A stretch of 64,000 nucleotides of DNA from NCBI GenBank assembly GCA_052168235.1, contig JBQLZK010000027.1:1-64000 (forward strand), given 5' to 3'. This stretch comes from Thainema sp. (GTDB taxonomy: Bacteria; Cyanobacteriota; Cyanobacteriia; Phormidesmidales; Phormidesmidaceae). Of the stretch, positions 56,162-61,664 are shown piece by piece. The notes below the pieces were generated by a model, which was given only the letters and a program-made list of their open reading frames with translations, was not told the DNA's origin and did no database searches. Made by a program: the position numbers and the translations under genes. How positions within the stretch are numbered: the first letter of the stretch is position 1; each line of letters starts with the position of its first letter.

Positions 56162-56875
56162 TTACGGATTGGCTAGTTGCGTGAGTCCTTTGCGATCGCA
56201 CACTTTAACTGTTGTTCCTTCAACTTCAATCAGGCCCGCCTGACTGAGTTTGTAAAACGTGCGGGACAGGGTTTCGGGAATGGTGCCCAGAAGGGCGGCC
56301 AGTTGGCCTTTGGGTAAATCAAGCTGAATGGTGTCTACCGGAGTTGAAAATCCGTTGGCGTCATCTGTGTGATCGCATAAATCAAGCAGATACTGCGCTA
56401 AGCGCTGGGGCACTTCGGTAAACGAAAGGGTATCGACTAAACTCGCCAGTCGTCGCAGGTGACGGGCGAAGTTGCTTAACAGTGAGATCGCAAGTTTAGG
56501 CTGCTGTTCTAAGACCATCAAAAATGCGGCGCGGGGTAGAAATAGCACCTGTGTCGGTTCCAGTGCCGCAGCCGAAGCAGGAAAGCAGCCGCCATCAAGG
56601 GCGGGCACCTCGGCAAAATATTCGTTTTCGCTAAAGATATGCAGAATTTGCTCTTTGCCGTTGGGCGCGAGTTTAAAGACTTTTACCCGTCCCGATTGGA
56701 TGACAAATAGACCCGTTCCTTCATCTCCTTGCCAAAACAGCGTGTCGCCTTTGCCGTAGGTTTGGGGAATGATGATATTGGCTAAAGAGAGCAACTGTTC
56801 AGGCTCAATTCCTTGAAACAGCGGCGTTTGCTGGAGGAATGCTTGGACGGCTTGAATGCGATCGCTGACGCTCAT
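56162..56875 (-). CDS. Crp/Fnr family transcriptional regulator
   Basis: cNMP-binding fold and HTH LAALLGTIPETLSR. Confidence 0.92.
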   Translation of the reverse strand: MSVSDRIQAVQAFLQQTPLFQGIEPEQLLSLANIIIPQTYGKGDTLFWQGDEGTGLFVIQSGRVKVFKLAPNGKEQILHIFSENEYFAEVPALDGGCFPASAAALEPTQVLFLPRAAFLMVLEQQPKLAISLLSNFARHLRRLASLVDTLSFTEVPQRLAQYLLDLCDHTDDANGFSTPVDTIQLDLPKGQLAALLGTIPETLSRTFYKLSQAGLIEVEGTTVKVCDRKGLTQLANP

Positions 56876-56888
56876 GAAAATCTGTACT

Positions 56889-57470
56889 CTAACCTGCACC
56901 CGCTTCTTTTAACATATCTACCACCGCATCGTGATTCACCTCTGGATCAGATGCTGCGTTTAAGCTGCGGCATTCTTCGTCCTGCGCCTCGCTCAAGGCC
57001 GTGGCTCCATCTTGCGTCGTTGAGTTCACATCTGCCCCAGCCGTGATCAGGAGTTGAGTATAGTCGGGTAGCCCATAGCAGGCTGTAACCACCAGCGCCT
57101 CATTGAGCGTCGCAACGTCCGCCTTGCCCATTAGATATGTCGCTATTTCTTGATGCCCCAGCGTAATGGCAGTGACGAGCATACTGTCATTAAAAACCGG
57201 ATCAAAGACCTGATTGGGATTAACCCCTTTCTGCTCAACTAAATTCTGTACCTGCTTCAGTTCATTATCAATCACCGCATCATGCAGCATTTGATCCGGA
57301 CTCGCAGCTCGGGAACCACTATCCGACTCCGGCAATGATTTATTGGCCGCTGATACAGGTATCTCATCAGCGCTTTCGGTTGTGGGCTGGGATGCGCGAT
57401 CGCAACCGGACAGGAATGTGACGGAGCTAATAAGTGCGATCGCAATCAACAGGGATTTTTTGACAGTCAT
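56889..57470 (-). CDS. Ankyrin-repeat lipoprotein
   Basis: Lipobox LSGC; LLITAGADVN...GATAL. Confidence 0.8.
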   Translation of the reverse strand: MTVKKSLLIAIALISSVTFLSGCDRASQPTTESADEIPVSAANKSLPESDSGSRAASPDQMLHDAVIDNELKQVQNLVEQKGVNPNQVFDPVFNDSMLVTAITLGHQEIATYLMGKADVATLNEALVVTACYGLPDYTQLLITAGADVNSTTQDGATALSEAQDEECRSLNAASDPEVNHDAVVDMLKEAGAG

Positions 57471-57808: not shown

Positions 57809-59296
57809 CTACCGATGCCACTCCGTCACTCCACCAGGTTTATCAATCAGCGTAATTCCCTGAGCTTGTAGTTCGTCTCGAATGCGATCGCTTTCGGCAA
57901 AGTTCTTCGCCTTGCGTGCTTCCGTGCGCTGTTGAATGAGCGAGTCAATATCGGCATCACTGAGATCGGAGGTGGATGTAGATTGCGATCGCGTATTGGG
58001 GTCAGCCTTTAATCCAAGTACCTCTGCTAAACAAACTAACGTTTGCCAGTGTTGCCGCAGGGTATCCGGATCACCATCGGTTTGGCCTTGGTGGGTAATC
58101 ACGTTGCCTTGACGACGCAGTTCTTTAGCCAGTTCAAACAGAACGGCTAAGCCTCCCGGCGTGTTGAAGTCGCTGTCCATTGCAGATTGGAACCGCTGTA
58201 CATAGTCGCTGTCGCGGTCAATCCGCATCGCTGCCGGATCACCAAAGGCGGTATCCTGCACGTCCGGCCAGCCCAGCTTCTCGCCGAACTCGTAGCCAAA
58301 CAGCAGTCCGTCTTGCAGGGTTTCCCAACTATTGTGGGCAGAGGTCATTGACTCTTCGGTAAAGTCAATTGGCTTGCGGTAGTTGCCTTGCAAGACAAAT
58401 AGGCGCACGGCCATTGGATCAGGGCCGTTGGGCGCATCCAGTAAATCCCGGATCGTGGTGAAATTGCCCAAAGATTTGGACATCTTTTCGCCGCCGACGT
58501 TGACCATGCCGTTGTGCATCCAGTAGGTCGCGAGGGAATGCCCGGTTGCCGCCTCTGACTGAGCGATTTCGTTTTCGTGGTGAGGAAAGACTAAATCGCC
58601 GCCGCCCATGTGAATGTCTACGGTGTCGCCAATGCGATCGCGGATCATGGCGGAGCATTCAATGTGCCAACCAGGACGACCCGCACCCCAAGGCGATTCC
58701 CAGGAAGGCTCGCCGGGTTTTGCGCCTTTCCAGAGGGCAAAGTCAAACGGGTCTTGTTTTTTGGGCGCATCTGGATCATCTGACACCCGACCACTGGCTC
58801 CGGCCTGCATGTCATCCAGCTTGCGACCTGAAAGCTTCCCGTAAGGGTCAAACTTACGCACGGAATAGTAAACATCTCCGGCTGAAGCGTAGGCATAGCC
58901 TTTTTGCTCTAGCTCGTGAATGAGCCGCTGAATGCCATTGAGCGTATGAGTGGCGCGGGGATATTCGTCCGCTTCGAGGACGTTGAGTCGCGCCATATCT
59001 TCTAGATAGGCTGCGGTGTAGCGCTCCGCCACCTCTTGCATAGTGGAGCCTTCCTGCTGTGCCCGATTGAGAATTTTGTCGTCGATATCGGTGAAGTTCT
59101 GCACATAATGCACATCGTAGCCGCGCCACATCAGATAGCGCCGCACGGTGTCCCACACGATGTAGCAACGGGCATGACCCAAGTGTGAATAGTCATACAC
59201 GGTGACGCCGCAGCAGTAGATCTGCACTTTGCCCGGTTCCAGGGTTTCAAAGGGTTCTTCGCGACGGGTAAGCGTGTTGTATATCGTCAGAGCCAT
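57809..59296 (-). CDS. cysS: Cysteine--tRNA ligase
   Basis: CGVTVYD..HLGH, GRPGWHIECSAM, FPHHENE, KMSKS. Confidence 0.97.
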   Translation of the reverse strand: MALTIYNTLTRREEPFETLEPGKVQIYCCGVTVYDYSHLGHARCYIVWDTVRRYLMWRGYDVHYVQNFTDIDDKILNRAQQEGSTMQEVAERYTAAYLEDMARLNVLEADEYPRATHTLNGIQRLIHELEQKGYAYASAGDVYYSVRKFDPYGKLSGRKLDDMQAGASGRVSDDPDAPKKQDPFDFALWKGAKPGEPSWESPWGAGRPGWHIECSAMIRDRIGDTVDIHMGGGDLVFPHHENEIAQSEAATGHSLATYWMHNGMVNVGGEKMSKSLGNFTTIRDLLDAPNGPDPMAVRLFVLQGNYRKPIDFTEESMTSAHNSWETLQDGLLFGYEFGEKLGWPDVQDTAFGDPAAMRIDRDSDYVQRFQSAMDSDFNTPGGLAVLFELAKELRRQGNVITHQGQTDGDPDTLRQHWQTLVCLAEVLGLKADPNTRSQSTSTSDLSDADIDSLIQQRTEARKAKNFAESDRIRDELQAQGITLIDKPGGVTEWHR

Positions 59297-59463
59297 GATG
59301 CACAGTCAGGGAGAACGTGTTCTATTTTTACTCATATCTGGCGCGAATACCTAATCGTGGCGTCAAGTCTAATGGCAAGCGCTATTCTGATGATAGTGAC
59401 TGTTGCGGGCTTAGAGATACTAGACATCGACGGGATATCGGCGGCTTTTGAAGGAGGAGGGAC

Positions 59464-60048
59464 ATGCCAGTAAAGGGGGATCTGCAAACGATTCTGAAAG
59501 AGAAATATGGCATTAACAAGAACATCAGCCAATCCTTGTCTACAGAGGATTGCGAAGCCATGCTGCTGCTATTGCAGAATCAGCCGAGCGCCCAAAAGCT
59601 AGTTGAATCCTTCATTGCCAAGAATGAAGAACTGAGCCGCAATAACCGTAACTTTGGTCAACAGCGCAGTCGAGCCGAGCAAAAGCTGAAAGATCTACAG
59701 GTTGAACATGAGAAATTGGAAAGTGCGATCGCAGCTTTAGAAAAGACCAATGCGTCACTGGGCAACCGTCGCGGTGAGTTATCGCAAGAGCAGCAACAAC
59801 TAGAAGCCCAAATTCAGCAGTTAACCTCGCAAAATCGAGCATTGTCGGGCAGGGTACAAAATCTTACGACGCAAAATGATGAGCTGATTGATGCCAACGA
59901 AAAGCTGAAGAAAGATAATAAAGACTTGAAAAATATTGTTGACCAAATTCGCTTGCGGTTGGCGAGAGACACCAAAATGCTGCTGGAATATGAAGACAGC
60001 GAAATTCGCAAAGCGTTGATTCGGCTCTTCCGCTGGACTCTAGGATAG
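59464..60048 (+). CDS. Coiled-coil hypothetical protein (gene 1 of HNH operon)
   Basis: GGAGGAGG SD; long heptad-repeat region. Confidence 0.85.
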   Translation: MPVKGDLQTILKEKYGINKNISQSLSTEDCEAMLLLLQNQPSAQKLVESFIAKNEELSRNNRNFGQQRSRAEQKLKDLQVEHEKLESAIAALEKTNASLGNRRGELSQEQQQLEAQIQQLTSQNRALSGRVQNLTTQNDELIDANEKLKKDNKDLKNIVDQIRLRLARDTKMLLEYEDSEIRKALIRLFRWTLG

Positions 60049-60060
60049 AGAGCAACTGCT

Positions 60061-60486
60061 ATGGCTAGTCAAAAACGCCAACGCCGCACATTCAGCGGCA
60101 TGAGCTATCGCGAAGTGCAGCGTTCCAATTCAGTCCGTCGCGATCAGCTGCCCAAGGCTGATCAGGCTTGGCTCAAAGCGCATGATTTTAAGAATGTCGG
60201 CTGGGATAATGTTATTCGGCTCTACCAAAAAATCAATGAGCTATTTGCTCAATCGAACGACGACGATTTGAGTTTAGAAGAACTATTTCTGAAAGCCGAT
60301 CAGATTGGTCAAACGTATCAAACATCTGCAGAAATTGCCGCCTTTAATCAGCAAATGCAAACTGAGGTCAGCGCCATATCGGATTTAATCGATCAACAGT
60401 TTCCGGAAACAGAAATTGAGATAGTAGATTACAGTAAATCTGCCCGTTCTCCCATCAAGAATCAGCGGAAGAAGAACCGCCGGTAA
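60061..60486 (+). CDS. Hypothetical protein (gene 2 of HNH operon)
   Basis: 141-aa ATG ORF 12 nt after gene 1; basic termini and acidic core. Confidence 0.8.
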   Translation: MASQKRQRRTFSGMSYREVQRSNSVRRDQLPKADQAWLKAHDFKNVGWDNVIRLYQKINELFAQSNDDDLSLEELFLKADQIGQTYQTSAEIAAFNQQMQTEVSAISDLIDQQFPETEIEIVDYSKSARSPIKNQRKKNRR

Positions 60487-60490
60487 GCTT

Positions 60491-60946
60491 ATGACGCGAC
60501 CCGACAAAGATCTAGAAGACCTATTTAAGCTAGCGGACAAGATCGGCAACAAGCGATATAACCGACTCACTCGCCAGGACTTGGCGGACTATCGCAAGTT
60601 TGACCATTGGCGCTACGTCAATGGCGATATGGAGTGTGGCACGACGCAGGAAAGCAAAGATTGGGCCAGAGATAATTCAGACTGGCACTGTCCAATTTGC
60701 GCTGCACGATTTAGCGATGTGGGTGGTCGAACAATTGATCATAAGCTGTCGCGTTCCCAATACCCGTGGCTTTCGCTAGACTTCAGAAATTTGTGGGTGA
60801 TTTGTCGGGCCTGCAATCGAGAAAAGGGCGAGATGCACTGGTACGAGTATGAGCATTATGTTTTTGTTAACTACCCTGAGCGCTATCGAGATATTTGCCT
60901 TTATCGGCCAACTCACTTAATTAAAGAACTGAGATCTAAGAAATAG
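60491..60946 (+). CDS. HNH endonuclease
   Basis: CPIC...TIDH...SQYPWL...NLWVICRACNREKG (Zn-binding HNH). Confidence 0.9.
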   Translation: MTRPDKDLEDLFKLADKIGNKRYNRLTRQDLADYRKFDHWRYVNGDMECGTTQESKDWARDNSDWHCPICAARFSDVGGRTIDHKLSRSQYPWLSLDFRNLWVICRACNREKGEMHWYEYEHYVFVNYPERYRDICLYRPTHLIKELRSKK

Positions 60947-61028
60947 AAAGCGCGATCGCACCACCTGCATCGTAAATAAAATGGCACAATAAAGGACTGC
61001 GGTTTATTGAGAAGAGGCAGATTTCCCC

Positions 61029-61664
61029 TTGGCACCTGTTCGAGTTCGTCAGCATGTTAATCCCCTGAGCGCCGCCTATCAGCGACCGATTGAGTTGCCG
61101 GATTGGTCAGTTTTGTATGAGAAACCGGATCGTCCGCTGCACGTCGATATTGGCTGTGCGCGGGGCCAGTTTTTGCTGGACATCGCTCAGCAGCAGCCGG
61201 ACTGGAACTTTTTGGGGCTGGAAATTCGGGAGCCGCTGGTGCATCAGGCCAATGAGTTTCGGCAGTCGCTGGGGCTGACAAATCTGTATTTTCTGTTTTG
61301 CAATGCCAATGTGTCGCTGGGGCAGATTGCTCAAACTTGGCCGACGCAGCGGGTGGATCGGGTGTCGATTCAGTTTCCCGATCCGTGGTTTAAGAAACGC
61401 CACCAGAAGCGGCGAGTGGTGCAGCCGGAACTGGTGGCGGATTTAGCGGAGTATTTGGTGCCTGACGGCATTGTGTTCTTACAGTCCGACGTTGAGGAAG
61501 TGGCGCAAGAAATGTGCGATCGCTTTTCGGAGCATCCGGCATTTCAGCGCTCATCTGAGGACTGGTTGCCGGACAATCCCCTGGGTGTTTCAACGGAGCG
61601 GGAAGATTTGACCCTGTCGCGGGGAGATGCGGTGTATCGGGCCATTTTTACAAAGGTTGCCTAG
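61029..61664 (+). CDS. trmB: tRNA (guanine-N7)-methyltransferase
   Basis: RVRQHVNP, DIGCARG, GLEIR, FPDPWFKKRH.KRR. Confidence 0.95.
   Translation: MAPVRVRQHVNPLSAAYQRPIELPDWSVLYEKPDRPLHVDIGCARGQFLLDIAQQQPDWNFLGLEIREPLVHQANEFRQSLGLTNLYFLFCNANVSLGQIAQTWPTQRVDRVSIQFPDPWFKKRHQKRRVVQPELVADLAEYLVPDGIVFLQSDVEEVAQEMCDRFSEHPAFQRSSEDWLPDNPLGVSTEREDLTLSRGDAVYRAIFTKVA

Follow-up and report, generated by a model that had tools for sequence, protein, structure and literature searches.

The first 64,000 nucleotides of contig JBQLZK010000027.1 of the Thainema sp. assembly GCA_052168235.1 (positions 1 to 64,000, forward strand; hereafter the window) contain a compact operon of three genes, here called g1, g2 and g3, between the genes cysS and trmB (Table 1). 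g1 encodes a coiled-coil protein, g2 a small protein made of two modules, and g3 a predicted HNH nuclease. In the list of open reading frames (ORFs) the gaps are 12 nt between g1 and g2 and 4 nt between g2 and g3. A first-pass annotation, made from the sequence alone, had described three tightly spaced genes between these two core genes; the ORFs, the gaps and the families of the flanking genes agree with this description. The same annotation had credited the operon with a strong Shine-Dalgarno signal. A strong GGAGG-type sequence is apparent before g1 only, none being obvious before g2 or g3, and no notable promoter or terminator signal was found at the operon.

Judged by sequence, the HNH core of g3 is the only part of the operon proteins that matches a known family. 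g3 belongs to the Pfam HNH family (PF01844, 29.2 bits against a cut-off of 21.4, residues 67-113). The catalytic His and Asn and the CxxC...CxxC zinc ligands are all in place, and residues C67, C70, D83, H84, N100, C105, C108 and N109 are invariant in 66 g3 relatives. The AlphaFold2 (AF2) model of g3, with a predicted local distance difference test score (pLDDT) of 80.6, consists of a helical hairpin (helices 4-23 and 28-41) followed by the HNH core, in which the beta-beta-alpha fold is modelled. The Foldseek matches of g3 are the HNH domain of Cas9, Cap5 and McrA, with weak E-values. Since the HNH active site and the zinc ligands are intact, the output of the operon would be cleavage of DNA (or RNA).

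The feature that connects g2 with g3 is a short motif, LE[ED]LF..AD.IG, which is present once in each protein. The first copy, LEELFLKADQIG, occupies residues 72-83 of g2 (60274-60309) and the second, LEDLFKLADKIG, residues 8-19 of g3 (60512-60547). Both copies had been pointed out in the first-pass annotation and were found again at these positions. The local alignment of g2 with the N-terminus of g3 has a BLOSUM62 score of 42, which was reached by 6 of 1000 shuffles. When the profiles of 70 g2 relatives and 66 g3 relatives were compared by hhalign, residues 66-96 of g2 were aligned with residues 2-38 of g3 (probability 87.7%, E 3.4e-6). The motif is also conserved in each family: L72, L75, F76, L77, G83 and Y86 are invariant among the g2 relatives, and L11, F12, G19, Y23, L26, T27 and D30 among the g3 relatives. 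This part of g3 was first suspected to be a DNA-binding motif of the SAP/HeH/Rho_N type (Pfam Rho_N on residues 6-31, E 0.12). The DNA-binding interpretation was dropped because the tag is a continuous hairpin helix in the AF2 model and a protein-protein interface in the model of the complex described below.

The sharing of a helix recurs in related operons. These sister triads were located through weak matches to the HNH protein or to the N-terminal module of g2 (N-module), and the type labels are our own, the triad of the window being type A. In types B (L154 and L158) and B2 (L155) the first gene resembles g1, the middle one encodes an unrelated protein of 137-140 aa and the last an HNH protein. 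In type D (L156) and type C (L159 and 11 further loci) the middle protein combines the g2 N-module with a different C-terminal part. In all of the 11 further N-module loci the HNH gene lies directly downstream of the N-module gene, and in 10 of them a same-strand ORF of 148-221 aa lies upstream of it; in L166 the upstream same-strand ORF has only 102 aa and is near the end of a 2386-bp locus. In types A, B, B2 and D the middle protein, compared with six HNH N-termini, matches that of its own type best. The cognate scores are 42 in A, 36 and 45 in B, 40 in B2 and 42 in D, each reached by 2-17 of 1000 shuffles, whereas the non-cognate scores are mostly 18-30, the highest being 36. The tag helices themselves are wholly different from type to type (LEELFLKAD, EILxEHxxF, AxKxxxANxxFxxTA and QLxxKAxRL). 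In type C, local alignment revealed no shared helix at the HNH N-terminus; here, a common tail is found at the C-terminus of both the middle protein and the HNH protein (...L.KYQLL and ...L.RYPLL). In six loci of the main type C clade the cognate score was reached by 0, 0, 0, 0, 1 and 26 of 1000 shuffles, and four other loci are weaker (2, 66, 129 and 310 of 1000). Therefore, across the sister triads of types A to D, the rule that the middle protein and the nuclease share one short helix holds despite changes in its sequence and position. Two types can reside in one genome, namely A and B2 in G044, and A and C in G359 and G368.

Two further observations were made at these loci. In L158 (4480-5730, G040:C9) a 416-aa Schlafen/AlbA_2 protein (PF04326, 1.1e-13) is encoded directly after the type B triad; in L154 this position is taken by an unrelated ORF of 190 aa. 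In G313:C1 (L062, 8270-8870) an apparent 1-kb insertion with a second tag-bearing ORF separates g2 from g3. An effector swap was considered there and rejected, because a run of N with duplicated flanks identifies the insertion as a scaffold-gap artefact.

The first-pass annotation had interpreted the shared motif as a helix that docks on the coiled-coil scaffold. Two independent lines of evidence support this: the co-varying helix described above and a model of the complex. Two copies of g1, g2 and g3 were modelled together by ESMFold2 on our own alignments, with g3 as the scored partner. The interaction prediction score from aligned errors (ipSAE) for g3 was 0.79, 0.79 and 0.66, and it was 0.00 in all three controls. 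Of 157 solved complexes 116 reach the calibration mark, as do 2 of 215 mismatched pairs; these counts hold only roughly here, this complex being unlike the calibration set. The model runs agree in at least 24% of contacts, with a partner pLDDT of at least 68. On the g3 side, most of the interface is formed by the tag hairpin (residues 6-30), to which residues 116-127 and 141-148 are added; on the g1 side, it is formed by residues 137-169 and 188-194 of both copies, and these coincide with invariant columns of the g1 alignment. Residues 68 and 82 are the only g2 residues in contact with g3 in the model. A control in which g2 was kept and g1 was replaced gave 0.00, a value that is not taken as a verdict on binding between g2 and g3. 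In the model, then, the tag helix of g3 appears to dock on the conserved C-terminus of the g1 dimer. The docking helix is the best-supported part of the interpretation given in the first-pass annotation, and the sister triads strengthen the case. Taken by itself, this structural part, a shared tag that docks on g1, is in our view likely to be correct.

The layout of g1 is consistent with such a role. A small conserved domain (YGINKN) at the N-terminus is followed by a coiled coil whose sequence varies and by a C-terminus (residues 138-194, ending in LFRWTLG) that is nearly invariant across relatives and is the best-conserved part of the protein. In most relatives g1 has 194 aa despite the variable central coiled coil, which suggests a constraint on length or register. 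Of the variant lengths, 187, 166, 145 and 243 aa lie a multiple of 7 away from 194, which is not so for 148, 155, 176 and 248 aa; some of the off-length relatives may be start-codon miscalls. Scans of g1 against Pfam and other collections yielded only generic coiled-coil matches and no P-loop family. The PADLOC matches of g1 include weak ones (7.6e-6 to 4e-5) to the coiled-coil parts of JetC and LmuB, and a weak match to a PHROG head scaffolding family (7.7e-4) also lies inside the coiled coil. No similarity of g1 to g2 or to g3 was detected by hhalign.

g2 has no match in Pfam, NCBIfam, PADLOC or PHROGs. In its AF2 model (pLDDT 78, rising to about 91 in residues 10-60) a confident three-helix N-module is followed by helix 72-86, which carries the tag, and by helix 89-113. 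A search of the g2 profile against 1.84 billion representative proteins gave 107 matches. These separate into proteins of 100-150 aa with the N-module only and matches to the C-terminal module (C-module) only, and g2 is therefore composed of two independent modules. Fold searches with the N-module found generic helical bundles only, and those with the whole g2 model found chance-level matches or generic bundles (best E 0.09 in BFVD; Z of at most 5.3 in VIA-align against 48,161 chains). Look-ups in the ESM Atlas returned only cyanobacterial clusters labeled as 'hypothetical protein'. One protein of 194 aa (P0415) is chimeric: the first ~140 residues of g1 run on into pieces of g2. A deletion, or faulty assembly of one metagenome, is the probable cause.

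Table 1. Position and nature of the operon, its parts and its flanking genes in the window
Feature	Position	Strand	Length	Description
cysS	57809-59296	-		cysteinyl-tRNA synthetase (PF01406, 1.1e-130)
Cassette	59360-60951	+		borders set by DNA comparison with the same-genus genome G001
g1	59464-60048	+	194 aa	putative coiled-coil scaffold
g1 residues 137-194	59872-60045	+		predicted docking platform for the tag helix (model interface and invariant alignment columns)
g2	60061-60486	+	141 aa	putative adaptor, two modules, basic tail at the end
g2 N-module	60073-60255	+		residues 5-65, G.sYRe.Q.rNS...GYrNVGWDnV, three-helix bundle
g2 C-module	60256-60441	+		residues 66-127, tag helix LEELFLKADQIGQTY (60274-60318) and acidic stretch DQQFPETEIEIVDYS
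g3	60491-60946	+	151 aa	predicted HNH nuclease with N-terminal tag hairpin
g3 tag hairpin	60500-60613	+		residues 4-41, first helix holds LEDLFKLADKIG
g3 HNH core	60680-60838	+		residues 64-116, zinc finger, CPIC ... DH ... N ... CRACN
trmB	61029-61664	+		TrmB-type methyltransferase (PF02390, 3.4e-51)

The three genes are found together in other cyanobacteria. In tblastn searches, wherever g3 is full length, g1, g2 and g3 lie next to one another in a constant order, and the 37 complete triads, one locus per genome, are without exception adjacent and in order. A survey of 401 evenly sampled genomes of the class gave g3 profile matches (E <=1e-10) in 76 genomes, and in 67 of these the protein is full length; the g1 profile was matched in 69 genomes and the g2 C-module in 67. 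Of the 67 genomes that encode a full-length g3, 65 also have g1. The other two, G260 (L161, G260:C63) and G320 (L162, G320:C33), contain decayed operons in which g3 is intact and full length, g1 is missing, and merely a C-terminal fragment of g2 (39 aa or 74 aa) is left upstream of g3. G021 was considered as a case of g1 without g3 and rejected, its contig ending inside g2; G059, G127 and G274 carry fragments of g1. In a pattern scan of 185,579 species genomes, 176 matching stretches were confirmed, and 80 loci were kept, 78 of them with cyanobacterial names and 2 named 'uncultured bacterium'. The named carriers include Coleofasciculus, many Nostoc, Leptolyngbyaceae, Oculatellaceae, Chroococcidiopsidaceae and Xenococcaceae. 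In the source annotations the relatives are called 'hypothetical protein' or 'HNH endonuclease', or bear generic COG-style labels.

The distribution is patchy, both among families (22 of 39 genomes in f16, 13 of 39 in f14, 7 of 17 in f10, 8 of 39 in f5, and none of 39 in either f2 or f18) and within genera (for example, 5 of 29 genomes in g23). Co-occurrence of the three genes and an uneven distribution are what the first-pass annotation had suggested looking for across cyanobacteria, and both are borne out. The 37 triads were concatenated and placed in a quick maximum-likelihood tree, on which the family labels change 15 times; the minimum is 6, the mean of shuffled labels is 22, and none of 200 shuffles is as low. 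Starred branches of this tree require no fewer than 5 origins in f16 and separate the two genomes of genus g126. This indicates mixed vertical and horizontal descent. One copy of the triad is carried by a 394-kb Acaryochloris plasmid, with transposases nearby.

The borders of the cassette can be drawn from the same-genus genome G001, which lacks the triad. DNA homology between the two genomes ends at about 59359 and restarts at about 60952 of the window, hugging the operon, and in G001 cysS (88% DNA identity) and trmB (91%) flank a different filler of 1066 bp. The triad is a conserved, self-contained cassette, and it behaves as accessory, horizontally moving DNA. The filler of G001 (L050, G001:C107:13500-17000) contains at 1098-1388 a 96-aa ORF with a signal-peptide-like N-terminus and a GWLGLLGLIGLAGL stretch. 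HIP1-type palindromes (GCGATCGC) are present at 59723-59732 of the window, inside g1, and at 60952-60961, exactly on the right breakpoint of the cassette. Upstream of cysS (56165-57470) the window encodes a Crp-family regulator (cNMP_binding and HTH_Crp_2) and an ankyrin-repeat protein with a lipoprotein-like N-terminus.

To describe the genomic context, 20 neighbourhoods of ~16 kb were compared together with the window, 21 in all. g1, g2 and g3 are the only clusters present in all 21 neighbourhoods, the next commonest cluster being present in 5; the surroundings of the triad differ from genome to genome. The flanking ORFs number 122, and 86 of them, short ones left out, were scanned with Pfam and not with PADLOC. 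Mobile or defence-like types account for about 11 of the 86 proteins, spread over 7 of the 21 loci (DDE transposase, Uma2, PIN, C5 methylase, baseplate, AAA_35, RecD2-like and SMC_N). A terminase, portal or capsid gene lies beside none of the 21 triads. No ATPase is conserved beside them, and there is no reverse transcriptase among the operon or flanking genes.

The operon can be compared with several known systems. As in Septu (PtuA/PtuB) and the PtuAB of retron Ec78, a small HNH protein would act only in a complex, with the partner encoded upstream. The first-pass annotation had noted the resemblance of the HNH signature to these nucleases, and this is correct as far as the HNH core is concerned: PADLOC models of PtuB match residues 33-140 of g3 with E-values down to 7.4e-10. 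Beyond the core the resemblance does not hold, as the scores of g3 are far below the cut-offs of the curated models, both for PtuB in NCBIfam (NF041761, 12.5 bits against 150) and for the retron-associated HNH family (TIGR02646, 14.1 bits against 52.15). In contrast to Septu and retrons, the operon encodes neither an ABC-type or AAA ATPase nor a reverse transcriptase, an absence that had been recognized from the start. Nor is a gene for a non-coding RNA seen in it, although no search aimed at one was made. No PtuA ATPase is adjacent to g3, g1 and g2 being devoid of an ATPase domain and the flanking genes being cysS and trmB; the partners are instead a 194-aa coiled-coil protein and a 141-aa putative adaptor of no known family. 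The best PADLOC match of g3 is component B of PDC-M01 (1e-10), but it covers only the HNH core (residues 57-128) of models with ~280 positions. No PDC-M01 model is among the best 25 of the 32 matches of g1, and g2 has no PADLOC match. Lamassu and Wadjet are similar in concept, a coiled-coil protein serving as the platform for a nuclease effector. However, g1 lacks an ATPase head and is shorter by a factor of five to seven, and it matches internal coiled-coil positions of models that are 565-1473 positions long. Because the defining ATPase or reverse transcriptase components are missing and the scores of the curated models are not reached, the operon is not a Septu system, a retron module or a Lamassu system. 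No description of such an operon was found in titles and abstracts from full-text searches, subscription journals being outside their coverage. In these searches and in the PADLOC and NCBIfam scans, no described system was found to match the operon.

The C-module of g2 is also found in other protein contexts, some of which are viral. It occurs in tandem in P0393, fused to a coiled coil in P0404, in small membrane proteins, and in P0396, a 2420-aa protein with SNF2 and N6-methylase domains. In P0402, P0403, P0408 and P0416 it lies C-terminal to portal domains of the Mu type or of the Phage_portal_3 family. In the IMG/VR contig L072, a 989-aa Mu-type portal protein contains the C-module at about residues 720-780, counted from the called start, and downstream of the portal gene are genes for a ParB_N protein, Mu F and virion morphogenesis. 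The phage contigs L072 and L073 encode no g1-like protein. There are no relatives of g1 or g3 in 2.9 million viral contigs and no relatives of g2 in 50,697 phage records. In the 401 cyanobacterial genomes the C-module is found in g2 only, apart from one 81-aa ORF. Some of the C-module proteins have additional motifs next to the tag module: a cysteine-rich motif (C..GLSCGG.CI....C or similar) precedes it in P0397, P0398, P0400, P0402, P0403, P0408 and the portal ORF of L072, and a motif of the form LP..vs.llKPKKFD follows it in P0397, P0398 and P0402, with a partial form in P0400.

The portal fusions are reminiscent of polyvalent proteins. According to the available text of PMC5512222, portal and MuF fusions are interpreted as cargo proteins that travel inside the virion and are injected, and cyanobacteria are poor in polyvalent proteins; no domain like the C-module is named in that text. 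The tag-bearing C-module of g2 resembles the portal and MuF polyvalent proteins in that it forms a C-terminal extension of portals and is also part of a protein with SNF2 and N6-methylase domains. In contrast, g2 and g3 themselves are chromosomal and stand-alone.

We propose that the operon is a scaffold-docked HNH module of the accessory genome that acts in genetic conflict, a proposal that in our judgement stands about an even chance of being right. In this module, g1 would form a parallel coiled-coil dimer whose near-invariant C-terminal 55 residues are the docking platform, and both the N-terminal tag helix of g3 and the tag in the C-terminal half of g2 would be recruited to it. As a homodimeric platform would offer two equivalent grooves, the simplest assembly may be g1(2):g2:g3, with the two tags side by side. 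Alternatively, g2 and g3 could compete for a single site on g1, as had been suggested in the first-pass annotation. Two symmetric sites on the g1 dimer, one for each client, would fit as well as competition. A symmetric dimer that binds twin tags would account for the lasting likeness of the two helices and for their joint variation. The small basic three-helix N-module of g2 and the acidic stretch may bind nucleic acid or gate the nuclease, and one of these functions is probable. The role in conflict would probably be either defence against phages or mobile elements, which we infer, or that of an addiction module; the label 'defence or toxin' of the first-pass annotation can serve as a working hypothesis. 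The proposal of a conflict role is based on the accessory and horizontal behaviour of the cassette, the subtypes with orthogonal tags, the decayed copies and the phage-borne tag.

Several points weigh against the proposed module. Apart from the mobile or defence-like proteins listed above, the flanking genes belong to ordinary metabolism, translation and photosynthesis. With neighbours that are mostly housekeeping genes in the Pfam scan, the triads do not appear to lie in defence islands, so of the two contexts that the first-pass annotation had suggested looking for, island or plasmid, the plasmid is represented by the one copy in Acaryochloris and the island is not. Sequence identity of 60-75% across families, together with the near-invariant C-terminus of g1, is high for a defence system. 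Direct or inverted repeats, transposon ends and target duplications were looked for at the flanks of the cassette and none was found. Since G260 and G320 keep g3 without g1 and with only a fragment of g2, an unrestrained HNH protein is not obviously lethal. Finally, the docking model comes from one structure-prediction job, in which g3 alone was scored. The housekeeping neighbours, the strong conservation and the intact HNH gene without g1 in two genomes keep alive the idea that the triad encodes a DNA-processing complex (for repair, recombination or the handling of chromosomes) of cyanobacteria with large genomes, most of them filamentous, that is inherited mainly vertically and often lost. 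Such a complex would agree with the usual single copy per genome, with the fixed length of g1 (194 aa), with the partial clustering of family labels on the tree (15 changes as compared with a shuffled mean of 22) and with the lack of matches in the sampled families f2 and f18 (0 of 39 each). It is harder to reconcile with the absence of the triad from a relative of the same genus, where it is cleanly replaced, with its patchiness within genera, with the starred branches that conflict with the family labels, and with the existence of decayed copies and of a plasmid copy near transposases. In addition, several tag subtypes in one genome, as in G044, G359 and G368, are usual for conflict systems. 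We regard the housekeeping complex as a serious but rather improbable alternative.

The other alternatives differ from a scaffold-docked conflict module in the function given to the tag or to the nuclease. In a toxin-antitoxin-like addiction module, g3 would be the toxin and g2 an antitoxin that mimics the tag of the nuclease, keeping g3 off g1 if g1 is needed for activity, or on g1 if docking inactivates the nuclease. The co-variation of the mimicked tag across subtypes, the small and tightly coupled genes, the mobile and patchy distribution and the acidic stretch of g2, which could mimic DNA, would all suit this idea. But g1 has no counterpart in classical type II pairs, and 2 of 67 genomes (G260 and G320) have kept an intact g3 after losing g1 and most of g2, which argues indirectly against strong toxicity. 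We consider such a module unlikely. In phages, HNH proteins act with terminase and portal in DNA packaging; for example, the packaging accessory proteins of the HK97 gp74 type are small HNH proteins with a functional link to portal and terminase. The operon could accordingly be imagined as a domesticated or remnant phage module, in which the tag is a docking element for head assembly or for the portal and g1 is scaffolding-like. The fusions of the C-module to Mu-type and Phage_portal_3 portals, its position in L072 next to ParB_N, Mu F and virion-morphogenesis genes and the PHROG head scaffolding match of g1 point in this direction. However, that match lies in the coiled coil, none of the 21 triads adjoins a terminase, portal or capsid gene as a packaging HNH gene of the HK97 type would, relatives of g1 and g3 are absent from the viral contigs and those of g2 from the phage records, and within the cyanobacterial sample the C-module is confined to g2. 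A phage origin in this sense is very unlikely. We give the least credence to a selfish homing-endonuclease cassette, which would spread by cutting empty sites. An HNH enzyme, variable genomic locations and the clean presence or absence between cysS and trmB are what such a cassette would show, but homing HNH genes are normally free-standing or intronic, and here two further conserved genes accompany g3. Moreover, the empty site of the relative is different DNA and not a simple gap, and the ends of the cassette have no repeats.

A more far-reaching version of the conflict module may be envisaged, in which the triads represent a new class of immune or conflict systems, built on a 'twin tag' and free of any nucleoside triphosphatase (NTPase). 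A homodimeric coiled coil would recruit one regulator and one nuclease by identical helices, the tags would have diverged into orthogonal subtypes, and phages would carry the type A tag, once acquired, on the C-terminal extension of the portal to disarm or trigger the host nuclease. The portal-borne tag could be packaged, injected with the DNA and then occupy the host platform. This version is speculative and we are inclined to doubt it; if it is true, a mimicry arms race would be centred on a helix of 15 residues.

The triad is present in about one-sixth of the sampled cyanobacterial genomes, and in RefSeq two of its products are labeled as hypothetical proteins and the third as an 'HNH endonuclease'. 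If the operon is indeed a scaffold-docked module acting in genetic conflict, it would represent a simple and evolvable way of controlling a nuclease without an NTPase, through a docking tag shared by two clients of a dimeric coiled coil, and it would be a tractable addition to the immune repertoire of cyanobacteria, which is poorly charted. The co-varying tag would then offer a ready-made specificity code, and the portal fusions indicate a concrete phage counterpart.

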